Assembly: GCF_013004595.1 (NCBI RefSeq)
Contig: NZ_JABEMC010000004.1
Span: 186,001 to 250,000, forward strand
Length of the DNA stretch: 64,000 bases
Direction: 5' to 3'
From: Brevibacterium luteolum
GTDB taxonomy: Bacteria > Actinomycetota > Actinomycetes > Actinomycetales > Brevibacteriaceae
The notes under the pieces are model-generated. The model searched no databases. It saw only the letters and a list, made by a program, of their open reading frames with translations, and was not told the origin of the DNA. The position numbers and the translations under genes were made by a program. Shown here one piece after another: positions 155 to 29,058 of the stretch (positions within the stretch are counted from its first letter, which is position 1; each line of letters begins with the position of its first letter).

Positions 155-2398
155 GTGAGCGAAGAGACCGAGATCAGCCACGAACAGCAGCACCTCAACA
201 CCGTCTACGCGCGTCTCGACGCGTTGCGTGAGGAGACCGCTGCCAGCCTTAACCACGTGCGCCGGACGCATGTCGGGGGCAACCACCAGAACCGTTCCGA
301 ACGCGATGCCTTCGCAAGCATGTATGAGGATCAGCTCATCCGCCTGCGCAATGCCGAAGAGGGGCTGTGCTTCGGCCGCATCGACACCGTCACCGGCGCC
401 ACAACCTACATCGGGCGCATCGGGATCTCCGCTCAGGACCGCACCCAGCTGCTGATGGACTGGCGGGCCCCGGCCAGCGAGCCGTTCTACCGCGCGACTG
501 CCGAGAACCCAGGTGACCTCACCCGCCGCCGGCACATCGCTACGCGACGCCGCCGAGTCATCAGCGTCGAGGACGATGTCCTCGACCTGTCGGCGCTCAG
601 TGCCCAGCAGCGCGCCGGGCTGCACGGCGAAGGCGCTCTCATCGCCTCCCTCGACGCCCATCGCACCGGCCGGATGGGCGACATCGTCGCAACTATCCAG
701 TCCGAACAGGACCGCATCATCCGCCGTCCCCTCGATCGGCTCGTGGTCGTACAGGGCGGACCGGGGACCGGCAAGACCGCAGTCGCGCTGCACCGCGCGG
801 CCTACCTGCTGTACCAGCACCGGGAGCGCATCGCAAAATCCGGTGTGCTGCTCATCGGGCCCTCGCCGGTATTCCTCAAGTACATCGAGCAGGTGCTGCC
901 CAGCCTCGGTGAGACCGGTGCCGTGCTGCTGACCCCCGGTCAGCTCATGCCCGAGGTCAACGCCACCGCCCACGACACCGCGCCAACGGCTGCGGTCAAG
1001 GGCGACCTGCGGATGGTTGAGGTCATCAAGCGGGCGGTGCGCGCCTACCAGCGGGTGCCCGACGAGCCGCAGCAGCTCAAGACGATCAGCCACACGATCA
1101 CCATGACCCCGGCGATGGTCAAGGAGGCCCAAGACCGGGCACGCCGCAGCGGCAAGCCGCACAACGGGGCGCGCCTGACCTTCGTCAAGCATCTGCTCAG
1201 CCTCCTCGCCGGAGCGCTGGCAGCTGCCAAGCACTACGAGCCCACGCCCGAGGTGCTCGCTGAGCTGACCGACGAGCTGCGCCGGGCCCGCGACGTGCGG
1301 GTGGCGATCAACCTGTGCTGGCTGCCGCTGAGCCCGCGCGGAGTGCTCGATGCCCTGCTGAGCAAGCCGCACCGGCTGGTGCCTGCCGCCGATGGGATCC
1401 TCCGTATCGAGGAGATGGCCCTCATCCGCCGTGCCCGCGGCGGGAAGATCACCGTTGAGGATGTGCCGCTGCTCGACGAGATCGCTGAGCTCATCGGGCC
1501 CAGCAGCGAGGTGCTCGAAGCCCAGGAGCAGGCCGGCACCCCGAATGCGGAGCTGGAGTACGCCCAGGCGGTCCTTGAGATGACCGGCACGGGTGACATG
1601 GTCTCAGCCGAGACGATCTCCCAGCGCTACCAGCAGGACACCGATGAGCGCACGCTGGCCGAACGGGCCGCGCAGGACCGGGAGTGGACCTACGGTCACC
1701 TCGTGGTCGACGAGGCGCAGGAGCTCAGCCCCATGCAGTGGCGGGTGCTGTTCCGGCGGGTGCCGAGCAAATCGGCGACAGTCGTCGGCGATCTTGCCCA
1801 GGCGTCGACGATGGATGCGACCCGCACCTGGTCCTCGGTGCTAGCCCCGCATGTCGGCGATCGCTTCGAGATGGAGGAGCTGACGGTCTCCTACCGGACG
1901 CCCGGACGCATCATGACGGTGGCCAACGAGCTGCTGCAGGAGTACTTCCCGCAGCTCTCCGTGCCTTCACCGGTGCGTGAGGGCACCTATGATCCGCTGG
2001 CTGAGGGCTTCGCCGACATCGAGTCGCTGTGCCGTCAGCTGCCGGAGATCGTACGCAGCGAACGCGCCGAACTCGGCGGCGGCCAGCTGGCTGTCATCGC
2101 GATGCCTGAGCACGTCGATCGTGTCGTGGCGGCGCTGGCATCTGATCCTGATGTCGACTTCGCTGCAGGTCCCGCCGGCATCGATCACGCCGTCGCGGTC
2201 CTCGATCCCAGTGAGGTCCGGGGCCTCGAATTCGACAGCGTCATCATCGTCGATCCGGCCTCGATCGCCCCTGCCGGCAGTGCGGCAGGAGTCGGGCAGC
2301 TGTATGTGTCGCTGACCCGTTCGACGGCACGGCTGAGGATCCTCAGCATCGGCGATTCGGTCCTCGCACCGTTCATCGCAGCAGCGGACCGCACATAA
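155..2398 (+). CDS. helD: HelD-family RNA polymerase recycling ATPase (UvrD/SF1-like)
   Basis: 747 aa; FGRID, YIGRIG, DWRAP, IVATIQSEQDRIIR, Walker A GGPGTGKT, ALHRAAYLLY, DEAQE, RGLEFD, LYVSLTR; SD-like AGAAAGG before GTG. Confidence 0.88.
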   Translation: MSEETEISHEQQHLNTVYARLDALREETAASLNHVRRTHVGGNHQNRSERDAFASMYEDQLIRLRNAEEGLCFGRIDTVTGATTYIGRIGISAQDRTQLLMDWRAPASEPFYRATAENPGDLTRRRHIATRRRRVISVEDDVLDLSALSAQQRAGLHGEGALIASLDAHRTGRMGDIVATIQSEQDRIIRRPLDRLVVVQGGPGTGKTAVALHRAAYLLYQHRERIAKSGVLLIGPSPVFLKYIEQVLPSLGETGAVLLTPGQLMPEVNATAHDTAPTAAVKGDLRMVEVIKRAVRAYQRVPDEPQQLKTISHTITMTPAMVKEAQDRARRSGKPHNGARLTFVKHLLSLLAGALAAAKHYEPTPEVLAELTDELRRARDVRVAINLCWLPLSPRGVLDALLSKPHRLVPAADGILRIEEMALIRRARGGKITVEDVPLLDEIAELIGPSSEVLEAQEQAGTPNAELEYAQAVLEMTGTGDMVSAETISQRYQQDTDERTLAERAAQDREWTYGHLVVDEAQELSPMQWRVLFRRVPSKSATVVGDLAQASTMDATRTWSSVLAPHVGDRFEMEELTVSYRTPGRIMTVANELLQEYFPQLSVPSPVREGTYDPLAEGFADIESLCRQLPEIVRSERAELGGGQLAVIAMPEHVDRVVAALASDPDVDFAAGPAGIDHAVAVLDPSEVRGLEFDSVIIVDPASIAPAGSAAGVGQLYVSLTRSTARLRILSIGDSVLAPFIAAADRT

Positions 2399-2407
2399 GA
2401 TCCGTTC

Positions 2408-2449
2408 GCGCCTCGGCAGCCTCATCGGCTGCTGAGGCGCTCGATCTTT
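2408..2449 (+). terminator. Probable intrinsic terminator of helD
   Basis: 14-bp stem gcgcctcggcagcc/ggctgctgaggcgc (one G-U on + strand) about 10 nt after the stop, followed by tcgatcttt. Confidence 0.65.
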
Positions 2450-2454
2450 GGGGC

Positions 2455-2522
2455 AAATTAAAAGCCGCCCGTGGCGTCGGCTTCCCCTCCGATGCCACAG
2501 GCGGCGTGCGCCTTGGGCGCAC
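2455..2522 (-). ncRNA. Candidate ~65-nt two-hairpin small RNA (alternatively the terminator of the nrdR transcript)
   Basis: Minus strand: -10-like TAAGAT (2533-2528), hairpin GUGCGCC-caa-GGCGCAC, 17-bp stem with loop AGGGGAAG, then UUUUAAUUU. Confidence 0.45.
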
Positions 2523-2607
2523 GTTTTATCTTACACTTACTTCTGGTCGTTTCACGAACCGGATCCAGCTTCTTCTCACAATTCGTTCAGCCGGGTGAGC
2601 GGGATGC

Positions 2608-3066
2608 TCATGCTTCTTCGTCGCGCTCGGCGCGCAGCGATTCGATCGCGGCTTCGAAGTCCTCCAACGAGTCGAAGCTCTGGTAGACGCTGGCGAATCG
2701 CAGGTAGGCGACCTGGTCGAGTTCGCGCAGCGGTTCCAGGATCGCCAGGCCGACCTCGTCGGCCTCGATCTCGGCGATGCCCTGGGAGCGGATCTTCTCC
2801 TCGACCTGCTGGGCGAGTTTGGCCAGATCGTCCTCCCCGACCGGTCGGCCCTGGCATGCTTTGCGCACACCGGCAACGACTTTCTGCCGGGAGAACTCCT
2901 CGGACACGCCTGAGCGCTTGACGACCGACAGGCTGGTGGTTTCCATGGTGGTGAACCGGCGGGAGCACTGCGGGCACTGACGGCGACGGCGGATCGACGA
3001 GCCGTCCTCAGCCGTGCGCGAGTCGACGACGCGTGAGTCAGGGTGGCGGCAGAACGGGCAGTGCAT
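2608..3066 (-). CDS. nrdR: Transcriptional repressor NrdR
   Basis: [15 protein letters not shown] zinc ribbon, ATP-cone, [15 protein letters not shown] overlap with hisD stop. Confidence 0.97.
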
Positions 3067-4406
3067 CAGGCCTCCATTCCCGGCTTGCCGCGGCGCAGCC
3101 GGACGGCCTCGCCGTGGGCGAGCAGGTCTTCTGCGGCTGCCAGCGTTTCGATGTGGTCGGCGACCTCGGCCAGTGCCGCAGCTGGGTAGTCGATGATCTG
3201 GCTTCCCTTGAGGAAGGACTGCACGCCGAGTGCTGAGGCGTAGGCGGCGGTTCCGCTGGTGGGCAGCACGTGGTTCGACCCGGCGCAGTAGTCGCCGAGG
3301 GCCACCGGTGAGAACGGGCCGATGAACACAGCACCGGCGTTGGTGATCTGCTCGGCTGCTGCCTGCGGGTCGCTGACGAGCACTTCGACATGCTCACCAG
3401 CGTAGGCGTTGACGACGGCCAGCCCGGCCTGCCGGGAGGCGACCTTGAGGATCGCGGACTGCTCCCCGGAAAGTGCGGTGCGGATGCGTTCGGAATGCGC
3501 AGCAGCAGCTGCCTGGCGCGCGATCTCCTGCTGCACGGCGTCGATGAGGTCCTGGCTCTCGGTGACGAGCACGGAGGCGGCCATCGGGTCGTGTTCGGCC
3601 TGGCTGATGAGATCGGCTGCCACAAGTGCTGGGTCTGCGGTGTCGTCGGCGAGGATGATGATCTCAGTCGGGCCGGCGATCGTGTCGATGCCGACGACTG
3701 AGCGCACCCGTGCCTTGGCGGCTGCGACGAAGGCGTTGCCGGGTCCGGTGATGAGGTCGACCGGTTCGAGTTCTTCGCCGTCGTCGAATCCGTGGGCCAG
3801 TGCGGCGACAGACTGGGCGCCTCCCATGGCCCACACCTCGTCGATGCCGAGCAGGGCGGCAGCGGCGAGCACTGTCGGGTGGGGCAGGCCGTTGGCCTGC
3901 GGGGGCGAGACAATGGCGATCGAGTCGACGCCGGCGGCCTGGGCGGGAACAGCGTTCATGATGACGGTCGAGGGGTAGACGGCCAGCCCCCCGGGGACGT
4001 AGAGGCCGACGCGTTCGACCGGCAGCCAGCGCGATGTCACGGAGCCGCCGCCGGAGAATGTCGTCGTGGCTGAGGAACGCCGATCGTTCTCAGCGACTTC
4101 CCGGCAGCGGCGGATGGTCTCCTCCAGTGCTGCGCGCAGTCCGGCATCGAGGTTCTCGCAGGCAGCGGTGAGCTCCTCGGCGGGCACGCGCAGCAGGTCC
4201 GGGCTGACGGAGTCGAACTTCTGTGTGTACTCCAGCACGGCAGCGCGGCCGCGGGTCTCGACGTCGTCGACGATCGGGATGACCGCCTCGGCTGCGGAGG
4301 CTGAATCGAGGCGGGCACGCGGCACGGACCGGCGCAGCGTGCGGCGGTCGAGCGGCGTGTCGGTGAGGTCGAGGACATTCATGAGCGCGTGAGTCACGCG
4401 CTCCAT
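3066..4406 (-). CDS. hisD: Histidinol dehydrogenase
   Basis: [44 protein letters not shown]; exact start uncertain (4406 or 4382). Confidence 0.96.
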
Positions 4407-4473
4407 TCTACGTCCTCTGCTTTCCTGCCGTCCGGTGCCCCAAGCTGCGAGAAGGTGCGGCCGCTGCTGTCGA

Positions 4474-7400
4474 TCAGAAGATCGACGTGGTTGCTGGGGT
4501 GGTGAGGCAGCTGGGTCCGAGCAGGCCCTTGAGATCGCCGAACAGGCTCGGGTCTGCTGTCACCCGCAGGCCGCGGTCGAGACGCATGATCGTCGTGCGG
4601 TCGCGGTTCGTCAGGCACAGCCGCACCTCGGTCTGTCCGGGGTTGGCCTGCAGGATCATCTTGAGGTTCTCGACGAGGTCCGGTGTGCAGCGTTCGACCG
4701 GCATCGACACGTACAGCGGCCGGTCGGCGCGGTCGGTGACGTCCGGGATCGTCATCGACATCGCCATGAGCGAGGTCGGCCGGTCATCGGAGCGGCGGAT
4801 GCGGCCGGTGACGGTGATGACGAGGTCATTGGTCAGCAGGGTGGCCACCGGCTCGTAGGTGTCGCCGAAGAACATCACCTCCATGCTCGCTTCGAGGTCT
4901 TCGATCGTGACGATCGCGTACGGGCGACCGGAGTTCTTCGAGACCTTCCGCGAGACCTGGGTGATCATGCCGCAGATCTTTGTCTGGGATCCATCCTGGC
5001 GCTTATTCTCCGGGTCGAGCAGCTGCGCGATCGAACCCTCGGATTCTGACTGCAGGATGTCCTCGAGCCCGTTGAGCGGATGGTCGGAGACGTAGAGACC
5101 GAGCATCTCGCGCTCGAAGGCCAGCAGCTCCTTCTTCTCCCACTCGGTGCGCTCGGGGATCTTGACGGCAAAGCTCGACTCGTCCTCTTCGCCGAGGCCG
5201 GCGAACAGGTCGAACTGGCCTGCGGCCTCCTGGCGCTTGACGCCGATGACAGCATCGACTGCTTCTTCGTGGATCTCAACAAGGCTGCGCCGGTTGTGGT
5301 CGAGGGAGTCGAAAGCGCCGGCCTTGATGAGCGATTCGATGGTGCGCTTGTTGCACACCTGGCTGGGCACCTTGTCGAGGAAGTCGTTGAAGGAGGTGAA
5401 CTTCCCCTTCTCCTGCCGGGCGTCGACGATGCCTTGGACAACGTTGGTGCCGACATTGCGGACTGCTCCCATGCCGAAGCGGATGTCGTCGCCGACTGGG
5501 GTGAAGTTGTTGGCTGATTCGTTGACGTCCGGTGGCAGCACGGTGATGTGCATGCGCCGGCACTCGCTGAGGTAGAGAGCCAGCTTGTCCTTGTTGTCCC
5601 CGACTGAGGTCAGCAGGGCTGCCATGTACTCGGCCGGGTAGTGGGCCTTGAGGTAGGCCGTCCAGTAGGACACGAGCCCGTAGGCGGCCGAGTGGGCCTT
5701 GTTGAAGGCGTAGTCGGAGAAGGGCAGCAGGATGTCCCACAGTGCTTGCGCAGCCTCTTCGGAGTAGCCGCGTTCCTTCATGCCGCCGAAGAACCCGACC
5801 TGCTGCTTGTCCAGCTCGGCTTTCTTCTTCTTGCCCATCGCGCGACGCAGAATGTCTGCCTGACCGAGTGAGTAGCCGGCCACCTTCTGCGCGATCGCCA
5901 TCACCTGCTCCTGATAGATGATGAGGCCGTAGGTGGTGTCGAGGATCTCGGCCAGCGGTTCGGCGAGCTCAGGGTGGATCGGAGTGATCTCCTGCAGGCC
6001 GTTCTTGCGCAGCGCGAAGTTCGTGTGCGAGTCGGCACCCATCGGGCCGGGACGGTACAGCGCGATCGTTGCGGAGATGTCTTCGAAGTTGTCCGGGCGC
6101 ATCATGCGCAGCAGGCCGCGCAGTCCACCGCCGTCGAGCTGGAAGACTCCCAGCGTGTCACCACGGGAGAGCAGCTTGTACGACTCCGCATCGTCAAGGG
6201 CCAGATGTTCGAGGTCGAGATCGAAGTCCTTGTTCAGCCGGATGTTCTCGATCGCATCGGAGATGATCGTGAGGTTGCGCAGGCCGAGGAAGTCCATCTT
6301 GATGAGGCCGAGGCCCTCACAGGTGGGGTAGTCGAACTGCGTAATGACCTGGCCGTCCTGGAACCGGCGCATGATCGGGATGACGTCGATGATCGGGTCA
6401 GAGGACATGATGACCCCGGCGGCGTGCACGCCCCACCCGCGCTTGAGGCCTTCAAGGCCCTTGGCGGTCTCGAAGGTCTCCCGCGCCTCGGGGTCGGTTT
6501 CCAGCAGTTCGCGGAACTCCCCTGCCTCGCCGTAGCGCGGTGCTTTGGGCTCTTCGATATCGGCCAGCGGGATGTCCTTGGCCATGACTGCCGGTGGCAG
6601 CGCCTTCGTCAGCTTCTCGCCGAGGGAGAACGGCTTGCCCATGATGCGGGCGGAGTCCTTGAGCGCCTGCTTGGTCTTGATGGTGCCGTAGGTGACGATC
6701 ATTGCTACGCGCTCGTCGCCGTACTTCTCGGTGACGTAGTCGATGACTTCGCCGCGGCGGCGATCATCGAAGTCGACGTCGAAGTCGGGCATCGACACAC
6801 GGTCGGGGTTGAGGAACCGCTCGAAGATCAGTCCGTGCTCCAGCGGGTCGAGGTCGGTGATGCGCAGGGCGTAGGCGACCATCGAACCGGCACCCGAACC
6901 GCGGCCGGGGCCCACGCGGATGCCGTTCTCCTTCGACCAGTTGATGAAGTCGGCGACGACGAGGAAGTAGCCGGGGAAGCCCATCGAGATGATGACGTCG
7001 AGCTCGTAGTCGGCCTGTTTGCGCACATCGTCGGAGATGCCGTTGGGGTAGCGGTAGTGCAGGCCCTTCTCGACTTCCTTGACCAGCCATGAGGTCTCGT
7101 CCTCACCGGGCGGGCAGGGGAACTGGGGCATGTAGTTGGCGCTGGTGTCGAAGGAGATCTCGCAGCGTTCGGCGATCTCGAGGGTGTTGTTGCACGCCTC
7201 GGGCATCTCCTTGAACAGTGCGCGCATCTCCGCTGGCGTCTTGAGGTAGTAGCCGGAGCCGGAGAAGGCGAAGCGGCTGCCGCCCTGGTCGTAGGTCGGT
7301 TCGATGAGCTTCGAACCCGACTGCAGGGCCAGCAGCGCTTCGTGGGCCTTGGCGTCGGATTCGTGGGTGTAGTGCAGGTCGTTGGTGGCCACCAGCGGCA

Positions 7401-8046
7401 GGCCGAGATCCTTCGACAGGCGCAGCAGATCCTTGACCACACGGCGCTCGATCGTCAGGCCGTGGTCCATGATCTCGCAATAGTAGTTGTCCTTGCCGAA
7501 GATGTCGCGGAACTCCGATGCGGCCTTGACGGCTTCGTCGTACTGGCCCAGCCGCAGTCGCGTCTGCACCTCGCCTGAGGGGCAGCCGGTGGTGGCGATG
7601 AGGCCCTCGGAGTAGGTGTTGAGCAGTTCGCGGTCCAGGCGCGGGTACTTGGCGAATGCGGAGTCGAGGCTGGCCAGCGAGGAGGCCTTGAAGAGGTTGC
7701 GCATGCCGGTGTTGTTCTCCGCCAGCAGCGTCTTGTGCGTGTAGGCGCCGCCGCCGGAAACGTCGTCGCCGCGCTGGCTCTCATCGGTGCGCCACTTCAC
7801 ACGGGTCTTGTCGGTGCGTGCGGTGCCGGGAGTCAGGTACGCCTCGACGCCGATGATCGGCTTGATGCCGGCGTCGGTGGCCTGCTTCCAGAAGTCGAAG
7901 GCGCCGAAGAGGTAGCCGTGGTCGGTGGTGGCGATGGCGTTCATCCCCGAGGCCCTCGTCGCCTGCATCAGGTCGCCCAGGCGGGCGGCTCCATCGAGCA
8001 TCGAGTACTCGGTGTGCACGTGCAGATGTACGAAATCCTCAGCCAC
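4474..8046 (-). CDS. dnaE: DNA polymerase III alpha subunit
   Basis: FVHLHVHTEYSMLDG PHP domain, GPGRGSGAGS, MPDFDVDF, KMDFLGL, YAFNKAH; 1190 aa, no intein-sized insertion. Confidence 0.98.
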   Translation of the reverse strand: MAEDFVHLHVHTEYSMLDGAARLGDLMQATRASGMNAIATTDHGYLFGAFDFWKQATDAGIKPIIGVEAYLTPGTARTDKTRVKWRTDESQRGDDVSGGGAYTHKTLLAENNTGMRNLFKASSLASLDSAFAKYPRLDRELLNTYSEGLIATTGCPSGEVQTRLRLGQYDEAVKAASEFRDIFGKDNYYCEIMDHGLTIERRVVKDLLRLSKDLGLPLVATNDLHYTHESDAKAHEALLALQSGSKLIEPTYDQGGSRFAFSGSGYYLKTPAEMRALFKEMPEACNNTLEIAERCEISFDTSANYMPQFPCPPGEDETSWLVKEVEKGLHYRYPNGISDDVRKQADYELDVIISMGFPGYFLVVADFINWSKENGIRVGPGRGSGAGSMVAYALRITDLDPLEHGLIFERFLNPDRVSMPDFDVDFDDRRRGEVIDYVTEKYGDERVAMIVTYGTIKTKQALKDSARIMGKPFSLGEKLTKALPPAVMAKDIPLADIEEPKAPRYGEAGEFRELLETDPEARETFETAKGLEGLKRGWGVHAAGVIMSSDPIIDVIPIMRRFQDGQVITQFDYPTCEGLGLIKMDFLGLRNLTIISDAIENIRLNKDFDLDLEHLALDDAESYKLLSRGDTLGVFQLDGGGLRGLLRMMRPDNFEDISATIALYRPGPMGADSHTNFALRKNGLQEITPIHPELAEPLAEILDTTYGLIIYQEQVMAIAQKVAGYSLGQADILRRAMGKKKKAELDKQQVGFFGGMKERGYSEEAAQALWDILLPFSDYAFNKAHSAAYGLVSYWTAYLKAHYPAEYMAALLTSVGDNKDKLALYLSECRRMHITVLPPDVNESANNFTPVGDDIRFGMGAVRNVGTNVVQGIVDARQEKGKFTSFNDFLDKVPSQVCNKRTIESLIKAGAFDSLDHNRRSLVEIHEEAVDAVIGVKRQEAAGQFDLFAGLGEEDESSFAVKIPERTEWEKKELLAFEREMLGLYVSDHPLNGLEDILQSESEGSIAQLLDPENKRQDGSQTKICGMITQVSRKVSKNSGRPYAIVTIEDLEASMEVMFFGDTYEPVATLLTNDLVITVTGRIRRSDDRPTSLMAMSMTIPDVTDRADRPLYVSMPVERCTPDLVENLKMILQANPGQTEVRLCLTNRDRTTIMRLDRGLRVTADPSLFGDLKGLLGPSCLTTPATTSIF

Positions 8047-28198: not shown

Positions 28199-28255
28199 GT
28201 CTCCTCCTCTTCATCGTCGAGCGGTGATGGTGCTGGTCGCGGTGGTGCTGCGTGC

Positions 28256-28377
28256 CGCTGGGACCAGAACCTCGTCCGCCTGTGCCCTGCCACCGGGGAA
28301 GTGCGTCAGGACCGGAGGGCTTTGGAACCGGGGAAGTATCCCAAAACCACCAGGCGGGCGAGGATCTCAGCCCAGCG
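28256..28377 (-). ncRNA. mraW RNA motif-like cis element between mraZ and rsmH
   Basis: Long closing stem (cgctggg/cccagcg, cctcgtccgcctg/caggcgggcgagg) enclosing two hairpins that each carry ACUUCCCCGGU; location and CUUCCCC loop match the described actinobacterial mraW motif. Confidence 0.8.
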
Positions 28378-28378
28378 A

Positions 28379-28810
28379 CTAGATCACACCGGGAATCACC
28401 TCGTCGGACCGATCGGCGAAGCCCTGCTCGGTCTCTGCCAGGTAGGTCTCCCATGTCGGTGCATCCCAGATCTCTGCACGGTTGCCCATGCCGATGACTG
28501 CGACGTCGCGATCCAGGCCGGCGTAGCGGCGCAGGATCTGCGGAACGGTGATGCGCCCCTGCTTATCCGGTTGTTCTGCGGAGGCTCCGGAGAGGAAGAC
28601 GCGCAGGTAGTCCCGCGCTTCCTTGCTCGTCATCGGCGCCGATCGCATCTGCTCGTGGACGGTCTCGAACTCCCGCGTGGAGAACAGGGTGAGGCAGCGC
28701 TCCTGGCCGCGGGTGAGAACGAGACCGTTCTCAAGCTCGTTGCGAAACTTCGCAGGCAGGATGAGCCGACCTTTGTCATCAAGGCGCAGGAGATGCGTCC
28801 CCAAGAACAT
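28379..28810 (-). CDS. mraZ: Division/cell wall cluster repressor MraZ
   Basis: [20 protein letters not shown], second DKQGRI repeat, EIWD; GAAAGGGGTG SD. Confidence 0.98.
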
Positions 28811-28850
28811 GTCGCTCACCCCTTTCGAAACCATCTGGTTCCGATAGCAA

Positions 28851-28874
28851 CCACTGTACTCCACTTCCCCCCAC
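28851..28874 (-). promoter_or_regulatory. MraZ-type operator: three GTGG boxes at 10-bp period
   Basis: Minus strand GTGGggggaaGTGGagtacaGTGG directly upstream of mraZ. Confidence 0.8.
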
Positions 28875-29058
28875 CTTTTCTATACATCTGCCTATGTCTG
28901 GCCAATTTCTCTCTGTTTTCGCTGGTCAGATAGGTGGTGGAAAGTGGGGTTTTTGGGCAGAGAACCCGTGCCCGAGGCGGTGGCTGGGCGGGCTGCAGGG
29001 CGCTTGCGGCCGTCGCCGGGGCGGTCGCGGGCCTGATTTGGCGGGTTCTGGGGGCTGT

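Follow-up and report, generated by a model that had tools for sequence, protein, structure and literature searches.

The DNA examined here is a 64,000-nucleotide (nt) stretch of the Brevibacterium luteolum genome (contig NZ_JABEMC010000004.1, positions 186,001 to 250,000; hereafter the window), and our subject is a hairpin element in the 209-base-pair (bp) gap at 2399-2607, where a helD-like gene and nrdR end in two convergent stops (Table 1). Three hairpins lie inside this gap. On the minus strand, which is that of nrdR, the order is a TAAGAT box, five bases, a short hairpin (hairpin A), a long main hairpin with the loop AGGGGAAG, and the U-rich stretch UUUUAAUUU; on the plus strand the main-hairpin loop reads CTTCCCCT. 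The main stem is ~100 nt from the nrdR stop, with the TAAGAT box between them. An earlier note, made from the sequence alone, had described the three hairpins, the box and the 17-bp stem, all of which are present, and had proposed a small RNA whose GGGGAAG loop could contact the messenger RNA (mRNA) of the division and cell-wall (dcw) operon.

A minus-strand RNA spanning 2527-2450 folds at -47.3 kcal/mol (z -5.6), and none of 200 shuffles folds as well. The plus strand is nearly equal (-46.5 kcal/mol, z -5.1), which bears out the earlier statement that this single sequence leaves the strand ambiguous. The hairpin next to the helD-like gene is probably that gene's own terminator and lies outside the nrdR-linked RNA; it is not conserved alongside the latter, because the neighbouring gene on the helD side varies between species. 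No relevant match, and none to the mraW motif, was found when 2350-2660 was searched against Rfam with cmscan on both strands at E up to 10, and a scan of the whole window gave nothing above threshold except one tRNA. A consensus scan for sigma-70 promoters gave no match for the TAAGAT region. The consensus terminator scan made no minus-strand call at the main hairpin, though UUUUAAUUU follows its stem; as we read it, the scan requires the stem to be uninterrupted where it meets the loop.

Table 1. Coordinates of the features discussed, in window positions.
Feature	Position	Strand	Remarks
UvrD/HelD-like open reading frame	155..2398	+	Pfam matches
helD-side hairpin	2408..2440	+	Directly 3' of the helD-like stop
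U-rich tail UUUUAAUUU	2463-2455	-	Predicted 3' end
Main hairpin	2464..2505	-	17-pair stem with one A.C mismatch; 8-nt loop at 2481-2488
5' hairpin A	2506..2522	-	7 bp, 3-nt loop; predicted transcript start ~2522
-10-like promoter box TAAGAT	2533-2528	-	Predicted promoter, by sequence comparison
nrdR	2608..3066	-	Pfam Zn_ribbon_NrdR (E 2.9e-21) and ATP-cone (E 7.1e-19)
mraZ-rsmH leader, mraW-type RNA	28254..28379	-	Two hairpin loops ACUUCCCCG; predicted pairing partner

A conserved hairpin with an invariant loop

The element in the helD/nrdR gap is a real, conserved and structured RNA element; it belongs to no known Rfam family at E<=10, and is an undescribed RNA. In a DNA search of 40 relatives, what matched was the hairpin itself, the surrounding spacer being otherwise unconserved, and the stretch TCGGCTTCCCCTCCG is identical in 24 loci with differing stems. 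The hairpin is present in 25/25 Brevibacterium genomes examined. We aligned 36 distinct hairpins (alignment A1) and found compensatory changes at 14 of the 17 stem pairs, with 89.4% of cells pairing; 0/500 shuffles reach the observed covariation, and no slid register comes near it. The loop and the three closing pairs are invariant across all 36 sequences. A fixed loop on variable stems is the reverse of the pattern (an unconserved loop) that the earlier note had named as telling against its proposal.

A covariance model built from this alignment (R1) finds the hairpin in 49/151 genomes of the order, representing 17/24 families and 26/64 genera, mostly as one copy per genome, and similar hairpins in 25/151 genomes of the class scan. 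Of the 28 best order-scan loci, 27 have the loop AGGGGAAG and one has UGGGGAAG. In a sample of 80 named loci anchored on NrdR, the hairpin stands 3' of nrdR in 6/6 Brevibacterium and 3/3 Brachybacterium loci, and was not seen in those of Streptomyces, Cellulomonas, Microbacterium or others. We used the covariance model for these counts because the exact 14-mer, present in 159/401 genomes of the order, is often coding: it was dropped as a marker when 14 of 30 fetched loci proved to be coding Gly-Phe-Pro-Ser sites, as are two extra copies in the B. luteolum genome.

One Brevibacterium locus carries a local rearrangement of the element: in genome G022 (locus L013, ~1730-1960) an inverted duplication lies beside the normal unit and forms a perfect ~70-bp palindrome centred on a second copy of the loop.

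Linkage to nrdR, strand and a promoter-like box

The hairpin lies downstream of nrdR, on its strand, in 28/28 of the best order-scan loci, and likewise 3' of nrdR in all 16 hairpin-type loci recovered with the exact 14-mer. In two loci from two other families (L017 and L030) the space separating the nrdR stop from the nrdJ start contains, on the same strand, a hairpin with the loop UGGGGAAG, NrdJ being identified there by NF005122 (E 1e-234), and in a further locus (L063) the hairpin is 3' of nrdJ. In most families the stem starts 1-3 nt past the nrdR stop codon. Because the stem abuts the stop codon in this way, we infer that the hairpin in most families is the tail of the nrdR mRNA and not a separate gene. 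In the window, the minus-strand gene order across 2608-8046 is dnaE (4474..8046), hisD and nrdR, followed by the hairpin RNA; upstream of dnaE there is no CTTCCCC site.

Folding energies do not point one way: among the 36 hairpins, nine fold better on the nrdR strand, by 4-11 kcal/mol, and a few on the opposite strand, by 1.7-5.9 kcal/mol. One stem position has the appearance of a G.U pair on the opposite strand; in many families it is mismatched as G.A, A.G, U.C or A.C, and is therefore a conserved internal mismatch, not an opposite-strand wobble. It is genomic context, and not the window sequence, that settles the prediction of the minus strand as the RNA strand, because the hairpin keeps the orientation of nrdR, occupies an intercistronic position between nrdR and nrdJ, and is preceded by a conserved box. 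As to the strand, the minus-strand reading in the earlier note is thereby supported, and its alternative, a decoy read from the plus strand, is rejected.

This box is a constant feature of Brevibacterium and Brachybacterium, in which exactly one TAnnnT stands 5-8 nt before the first hairpin in 25/25 distinct sequences. Ten variants of it occur, TAnnAT accounts for 23 of the 25, and its T, A, A and T are invariant in an alignment of 23 sequences (A2). Across these 23, hairpin A has 5 of its 7 pairs changed on both sides. A U-rich tail follows on the nrdR strand in most Brevibacterium sequences; a U tract was not seen in several other families. The unit outlined in the earlier note (box, start near 2522, two hairpins, U tail) is kept across the genus. 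Two Brevibacterium genomes (loci L013 and L027) lack hairpin A, and there the main hairpin and the U tail come immediately after the box. In genome G020 (locus L018) the whole unit lies ~4 kb from nrdR instead of ~100 nt, with the box and both hairpins intact. We consider it likely, from this comparison of sequences, that the hairpin RNA has its own promoter in Brevibacterium.

Control of this predicted promoter by NrdR was considered but finds no support, no pair of NrdR boxes being present at the promoter-like box. Elsewhere in the genome (G000:C18), an nrdH-nrdI-nrdE-nrdF cluster is preceded, ~160 nt before the nrdH start, by two palindromes resembling NrdR boxes, ACACATGATCTAGGGGT and ACACAACATCTAGTGGT, with a spacing of 31 nt.

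Complementary loops in the mraZ-rsmH leader

The second partner in the proposed contact lies ~25 kb away, in the spacer between mraZ and rsmH (both products identified by NCBIfam). The earlier note had stated that GGGGAAG is the exact complement of CUUCCCC in both loops of this leader, and both sites were located in hairpin loops, at 28330-28336 and 28295-28301 of the minus strand, sitting as tandem hairpins within one long helix. The leader is of the mraW type. The mraW motif has the loop 5'-CUUCCCC-3' and a second copy near mur genes (PMC4607514), is transcribed within the 5' untranslated region (UTR) in C. glutamicum (PMC4046766), appears in a table by Weinberg et al. 2010 (PMC2864571), and is stated to have an unknown function (PMC5640933). 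The Rfam model mraW RF01746 matches 28247-28338 with 23.2 bits against a threshold of 50 (E 0.014); this single-hairpin model falls so far below threshold that annotation would miss the Brevibacterium leader.

CUUCCCC occurs in a hairpin loop upstream of rsmH in 30/30 loci, with two such loops and covarying stems in 25/25 Brevibacterium, and in 9/11 further families. In a sample of the class, 52/59 genomes have it upstream of rsmH, 41 of them at up to 300 nt and the other 11 at up to 1400 nt; two genomes gave no such site, and the remaining five were read over 300 nt only.

The 7-mer alone is not rare: it occurs 13 times in the window against 7.6 +/- 2.5 expected (6/100 shuffles reach 13), and the genome holds 365 CTTCCCC/GGGGAAG sites. 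What exceeds chance is its conservation. In each loop it is precisely the 7-mer complementary to the other loop that is invariant; the base flanking GGGGAAG varies between A, U and C, and each 7-mer is presented on a stable hairpin, as in a kissing pair. When the 365 sites are ranked by the length of the flanking stem, the nrdR-linked hairpin and the two mraW hairpins take ranks 1, 2 and joint 3. The predicted energy of the 7-bp duplex is -13.1 kcal/mol.

Two other partners were considered and set aside. A partner in cis within the dcw mRNA, GGGGAAG at 28864-28870 among three GTGG repeats before mraZ, is not kept as this 7-mer in relatives. The 6C RNA was not found in this genome, and its C-run loops give only ~5 bp.

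The DUF3145 leader and matched loop changes

The same loop, AGGGGAAG, recurs outside the window in a 5' leader hairpin (~201600-201664; locus L254, 310-365) of a DUF3145 gene (G000:C15:201665-202159). In this genome a TATGCT box lies just upstream of the hairpin, and the ribosome-binding site is in the lower stem. The hairpin takes the form CG(U/C)-N-GGGGAAG-(A/G)CG and is present in 30/30 loci of relatives, in 8/9 further families, and in 51/52 class genomes that have the gene, two unpublished genomes being left out. DUF3145 was absent from 65/65 genomes of other classes, and none of the papers found to name it assigns a function. Rfam gave no match at E<=0.1 for the leader in five loci.

Both the DUF3145 and the rsmH loops could be read in 117 genomes (36 of one family, f3, 38 relatives and 43 further class genomes), and 100 of these have GGGGAAG together with CUUCCCC. 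All 17 genomes with a change belong to f3, the loops being unchanged in the 81/81 genomes outside it. A change in both loops was met in genome G026, with AUUCCCC before rsmH and GGGGAAU in the DUF3145 leader. We sampled f3 through 31 genomes of 30 genera plus five more (loci L285, L294-L303 and L413-L475). Written with the DUF3145 leader before the rsmH leader, the pairs in this family are GGGGAAG/CUUCCCC in 19 genomes, GGGGAAU/AUUCCCC in nine, GGGGAAA/AUUCCCC in five, and GGGGAAU/CUUCCCC, GGGGAAA/CUUCCCC and AGGGAAA/AUUCCCU in one each. Changes are thus compensated from G:C to U:A in nine genomes and, at the other end of the duplex, from G:C to A:U in one. The two RNAs that change are encoded 36-58 kb apart, and the only changes observed among the 117 genomes are at mutually pairing positions, in the same genomes.

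These matched changes lend good but not conclusive support to a predicted pairing in trans, GGGGAAG with CUUCCCC, between the DUF3145 leader and the mraW loop. If the DUF3145 leader does pair, the nrdR-linked RNA could do so too, because it presents the same 7-mer on a very stable stem; by this analogy we infer a contact of the nrdR-linked RNA with the mraW loops.

A wider set of GGGGAAG-loop hairpins

The nrdR-linked hairpin is one member of a wider set of hairpins with this loop, and in all the additional ones, recovered by class and genome-wide scans, GGGGAAG is on the sense strand. In nine loci of five families from other orders (L068, L070, L072, L073, L075, L078, L080, L086 and L087; Pfam tested for three) a long hairpin with the loop GG-AGGGGAAG-CC stands ~25-45 nt before a small excisionase-like HTH_17 gene, which has as neighbours a gene identified as deacetylase-like from nothing more than its C-terminal peptide and a further conserved gene. 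Another such hairpin is in the leader of a DUF3263 gene, and in a further family a terminator-like one follows a membrane-protein gene. In family f32 (L069, L071, L076, L077 and L081) the element is probably a small RNA: a candidate of ~95 nt lies between genes for an extracytoplasmic function (ECF) sigma factor and a kinase, on the opposite strand, with a conserved CTAATGA box, a 5' GGUGUGUCG and a terminal U-tailed hairpin with the loop AGGGGAAG. Rfam gave no match in 18 loci with GGGGAAG hairpins.

One hairpin with this loop (L065, genome G520) is found between a gene for a protein resembling single-stranded DNA-binding protein (SSB) and a small open reading frame, after which comes a tyrosine integrase; this copy thus seems to be carried by a mobile element.

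Proposed explanation and alternatives

We propose, with a probability of about 0.5, that the gap specifies a two-hairpin RNA whose GGGGAAG loop makes a kissing contact with the CUUCCCC loops of the mraW-type leader. The minus strand would encode an RNA of ~67 nt that starts ~6 nt after the conserved TAnnAT box (~2522) and ends in the U-rich tail (~2456), and its invariant loop would form 7 bp with the CUUCCCC loops of the mraZ-rsmH leader. In Brevibacterium this RNA would be an independent transcript, whereas other families would make it as the 3' tail of their nrdR or nrdR-nrdJ mRNA. At the CUUCCCC loops, of which Brevibacterium has two, it may compete with the DUF3145 leader or add to it, so that its most likely role would be that of a second ligand or competitor. 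In this way the nrdR locus, and with it deoxynucleotide supply, would be coupled to how the rsmH/division operon and DUF3145 are expressed. Control may also run the other way, from the mraW leader to the nrdR tail.

Several observations weigh against this proposal. The nrdR-linked hairpin shows no loop-core variant in our sample that could reveal covariation with the mraW loop, and no hairpin with a changed loop was found downstream of nrdR in genomes G026, G193, G374, G029 and G038. In f3, the family in which the loops change, the nrdR hairpin is present in only 7/31 genomes, all with unchanged loops, and of the five weak model matches there with assigned loci, the three that were read proved to be ordinary terminators. 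Genomes lacking the nrdR hairpin, such as G037 and G038, still have CUUCCCC in the mraW loop, and so do six class genomes lacking a DUF3145 gene; therefore neither GGGGAAG RNA can be the sole reason for its conservation. R1 has no match in 102/151 genomes of the order. Both covariation events fall within one AT-drifting, low-GC family and both run from GC to AT, and in some genomes the terminal pair is lost (five have A:A, one U:C and one A:C), at a predicted cost of ~2 kcal/mol for a terminal mismatch. Ordered by thermodynamic accessibility alone, the two mraW sites come no higher than 20th and 140th among the 365 in the genome. The public sequencing runs consist of low-depth assembled contigs, several of them probably DNA, and are uninformative on transcription, ends and strand. 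Finally, termination or protection of the 3' end could be all that the hairpin does.

This last point can be extended into an explanation of its own, in which the hairpin is a terminator or 3'-protecting stem of nrdR (and, convergently, of helD) with a merely structural loop and no role in trans. The closeness of the stem to the nrdR stop in most families would fit, as would its GC-richness, the U's that follow it in the window and in many Brevibacterium sequences, and the terminator-like plus strand at 2503-2525. Terminator loops, however, are not normally invariant over 17 families with covarying stems; several families have no U tail, two carry the hairpin inside the nrdR-nrdJ operon, in Brevibacterium and Brachybacterium a conserved -10-like box separates nrdR from the hairpin, and the same loop is found in 5' leaders. 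We regard a purely terminating or protecting role as quite improbable. Somewhat easier to entertain, but still unlikely in our view, is that some protein or other factor recognises the GGGGAAG loop and has as its regulon the nrdR tail, the DUF3145 leader and the rest of the set, the complementarity to mraW being irrelevant for this RNA. Such a reader would account for one loop recurring in unrelated contexts (DUF3145, HTH_17 and DUF3263 leaders, and terminator-like hairpins in two families), for mraW loops that persist where GGGGAAG RNAs are missing, and for changed loop pairs that are not complementary (the five A:A cases). It gives no reason why the only loop changes among the 117 genomes should fall at mutually pairing positions in the same genomes, or why the invariant part of each loop should be exactly the complementary 7-mer, and no candidate protein was identified.

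The idea that the plus strand is the RNA, with the loop CUUCCCCU as a third mraW-like hairpin or as a decoy for a binder of the mraW loop, draws on the equal folding of both strands in the window and on a better plus-strand fold in one Brevibacterium subgroup (by 1.7 kcal/mol) and in locus L038 (by 5.9). Given the fixed orientation to the nrdR sense strand (28/28 and 16/16 loci), the intercistronic position between nrdR and nrdJ on their strand, a TAnnAT that resembles a -10 box only in the minus-strand direction and would in most species serve poorly as a plus-strand U tail, and no Rfam mraW match at E up to 10, we consider it extremely improbable.

Relation to known RNAs and significance

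The nrdR-linked hairpin resembles the mraW RNA (RF01746) in being an actinobacterial hairpin with a covarying stem and an invariant 7-nt loop. Unlike mraW, it shows the complement, GGGGAAG, on the transcribed strand, lies 3' of nrdR far from rsmH, and has no match to the model in cmscan; it is a candidate partner of the mraW RNA, not a member of that family. With the DUF3145 leader it shares the GGGGAAG loop core, a stable hairpin and the same genomes, whereas the DUF3145 element is a 5' leader with closing pairs CGU/ACG or CGC/GCG instead of CGG/CCG, and is class-wide where the nrdR hairpin is patchy.

The 6C RNA (RF01066) is also a small actinobacterial RNA with two hairpins, the loops of which are thought to be a pairing surface. 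Its loops are C runs (CCCCCC, in four other genomes) as against GGGGAAG here, and its model has no match in this genome. Fully complementary hairpin loops of 6-9 nt form the recognition step in OxyS-fhlA, ColE1 RNA I-RNA II and CopA-CopT, as proven by binding and mutation. Here, in contrast, the contact is predicted, and the partners are chromosomal and conserved across a bacterial class.

In other families the element lies directly after the nrdR stop, in the 3'UTR, and there it would resemble 3'UTR-derived small RNAs such as s-SodF of Streptomyces (PMC3919588) and NarS (PMC7038943), in that a stable mRNA 3' end could be released to act in trans. The hairpin of Brevibacterium and Brachybacterium differs in being preceded by a promoter-like box. 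The available part of a differential RNA-sequencing study covering nrdRJ in Cutibacterium (P. acnes) mentions no hairpin (PMC3848588), and in the literature searched, supplements being outside the search, we found no description of an nrdR-linked RNA, a GGGGAAG loop or an mraW partner.

Since 2010 the conserved mraW RNA has lacked a known function, and the RNAs described here would be its first candidate partners. What is new is the finding of two undescribed RNAs with an exactly complementary and equally invariant loop and, in the matched loop changes, the first comparative evidence that such loops may pair in trans. A link is thereby suggested between three parts of the genome not connected before: the nrdR locus (ribonucleotide reductase control), the leader of the division and cell-wall operon, and the class-specific DUF3145.

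More tentatively, and with the chances in our estimate somewhat below even, these RNAs might belong to a loop-loop network spanning the class Actinomycetes, in which GGGGAAG RNAs dock by 7 bp on CUUCCCC leaders (mraW and others) and couple nucleotide supply, cell division and genes of unknown function. If so, the DUF3145 leader would be the member of the GGGGAAG set present throughout; part of one order would add the nrdR/nrdJ tail or a small RNA descended from it, and the HTH_17 and DUF3263 leaders would belong to it elsewhere. The nrdR-linked RNA of Brevibacterium would then compete as a free-standing molecule, and the orphan mraW motif would serve as an RNA-sensing leader.

Additional observations

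Just after a TATAGA box before mraZ, the window carries at 28845-28880 (minus strand) three GTGG repeats with 10-nt spacing, GTGGGGGGAA, GTGGAGTACA and GTGGTTGC. This repeat pattern is conserved in relatives, and we take it to resemble the MraZ operator.

A further GGGGAAG site is found at G000:C10 ~3130, in a stretch that resembles the 5' domain of 23S rRNA, and would offer CUUCCCC one more conserved complement.

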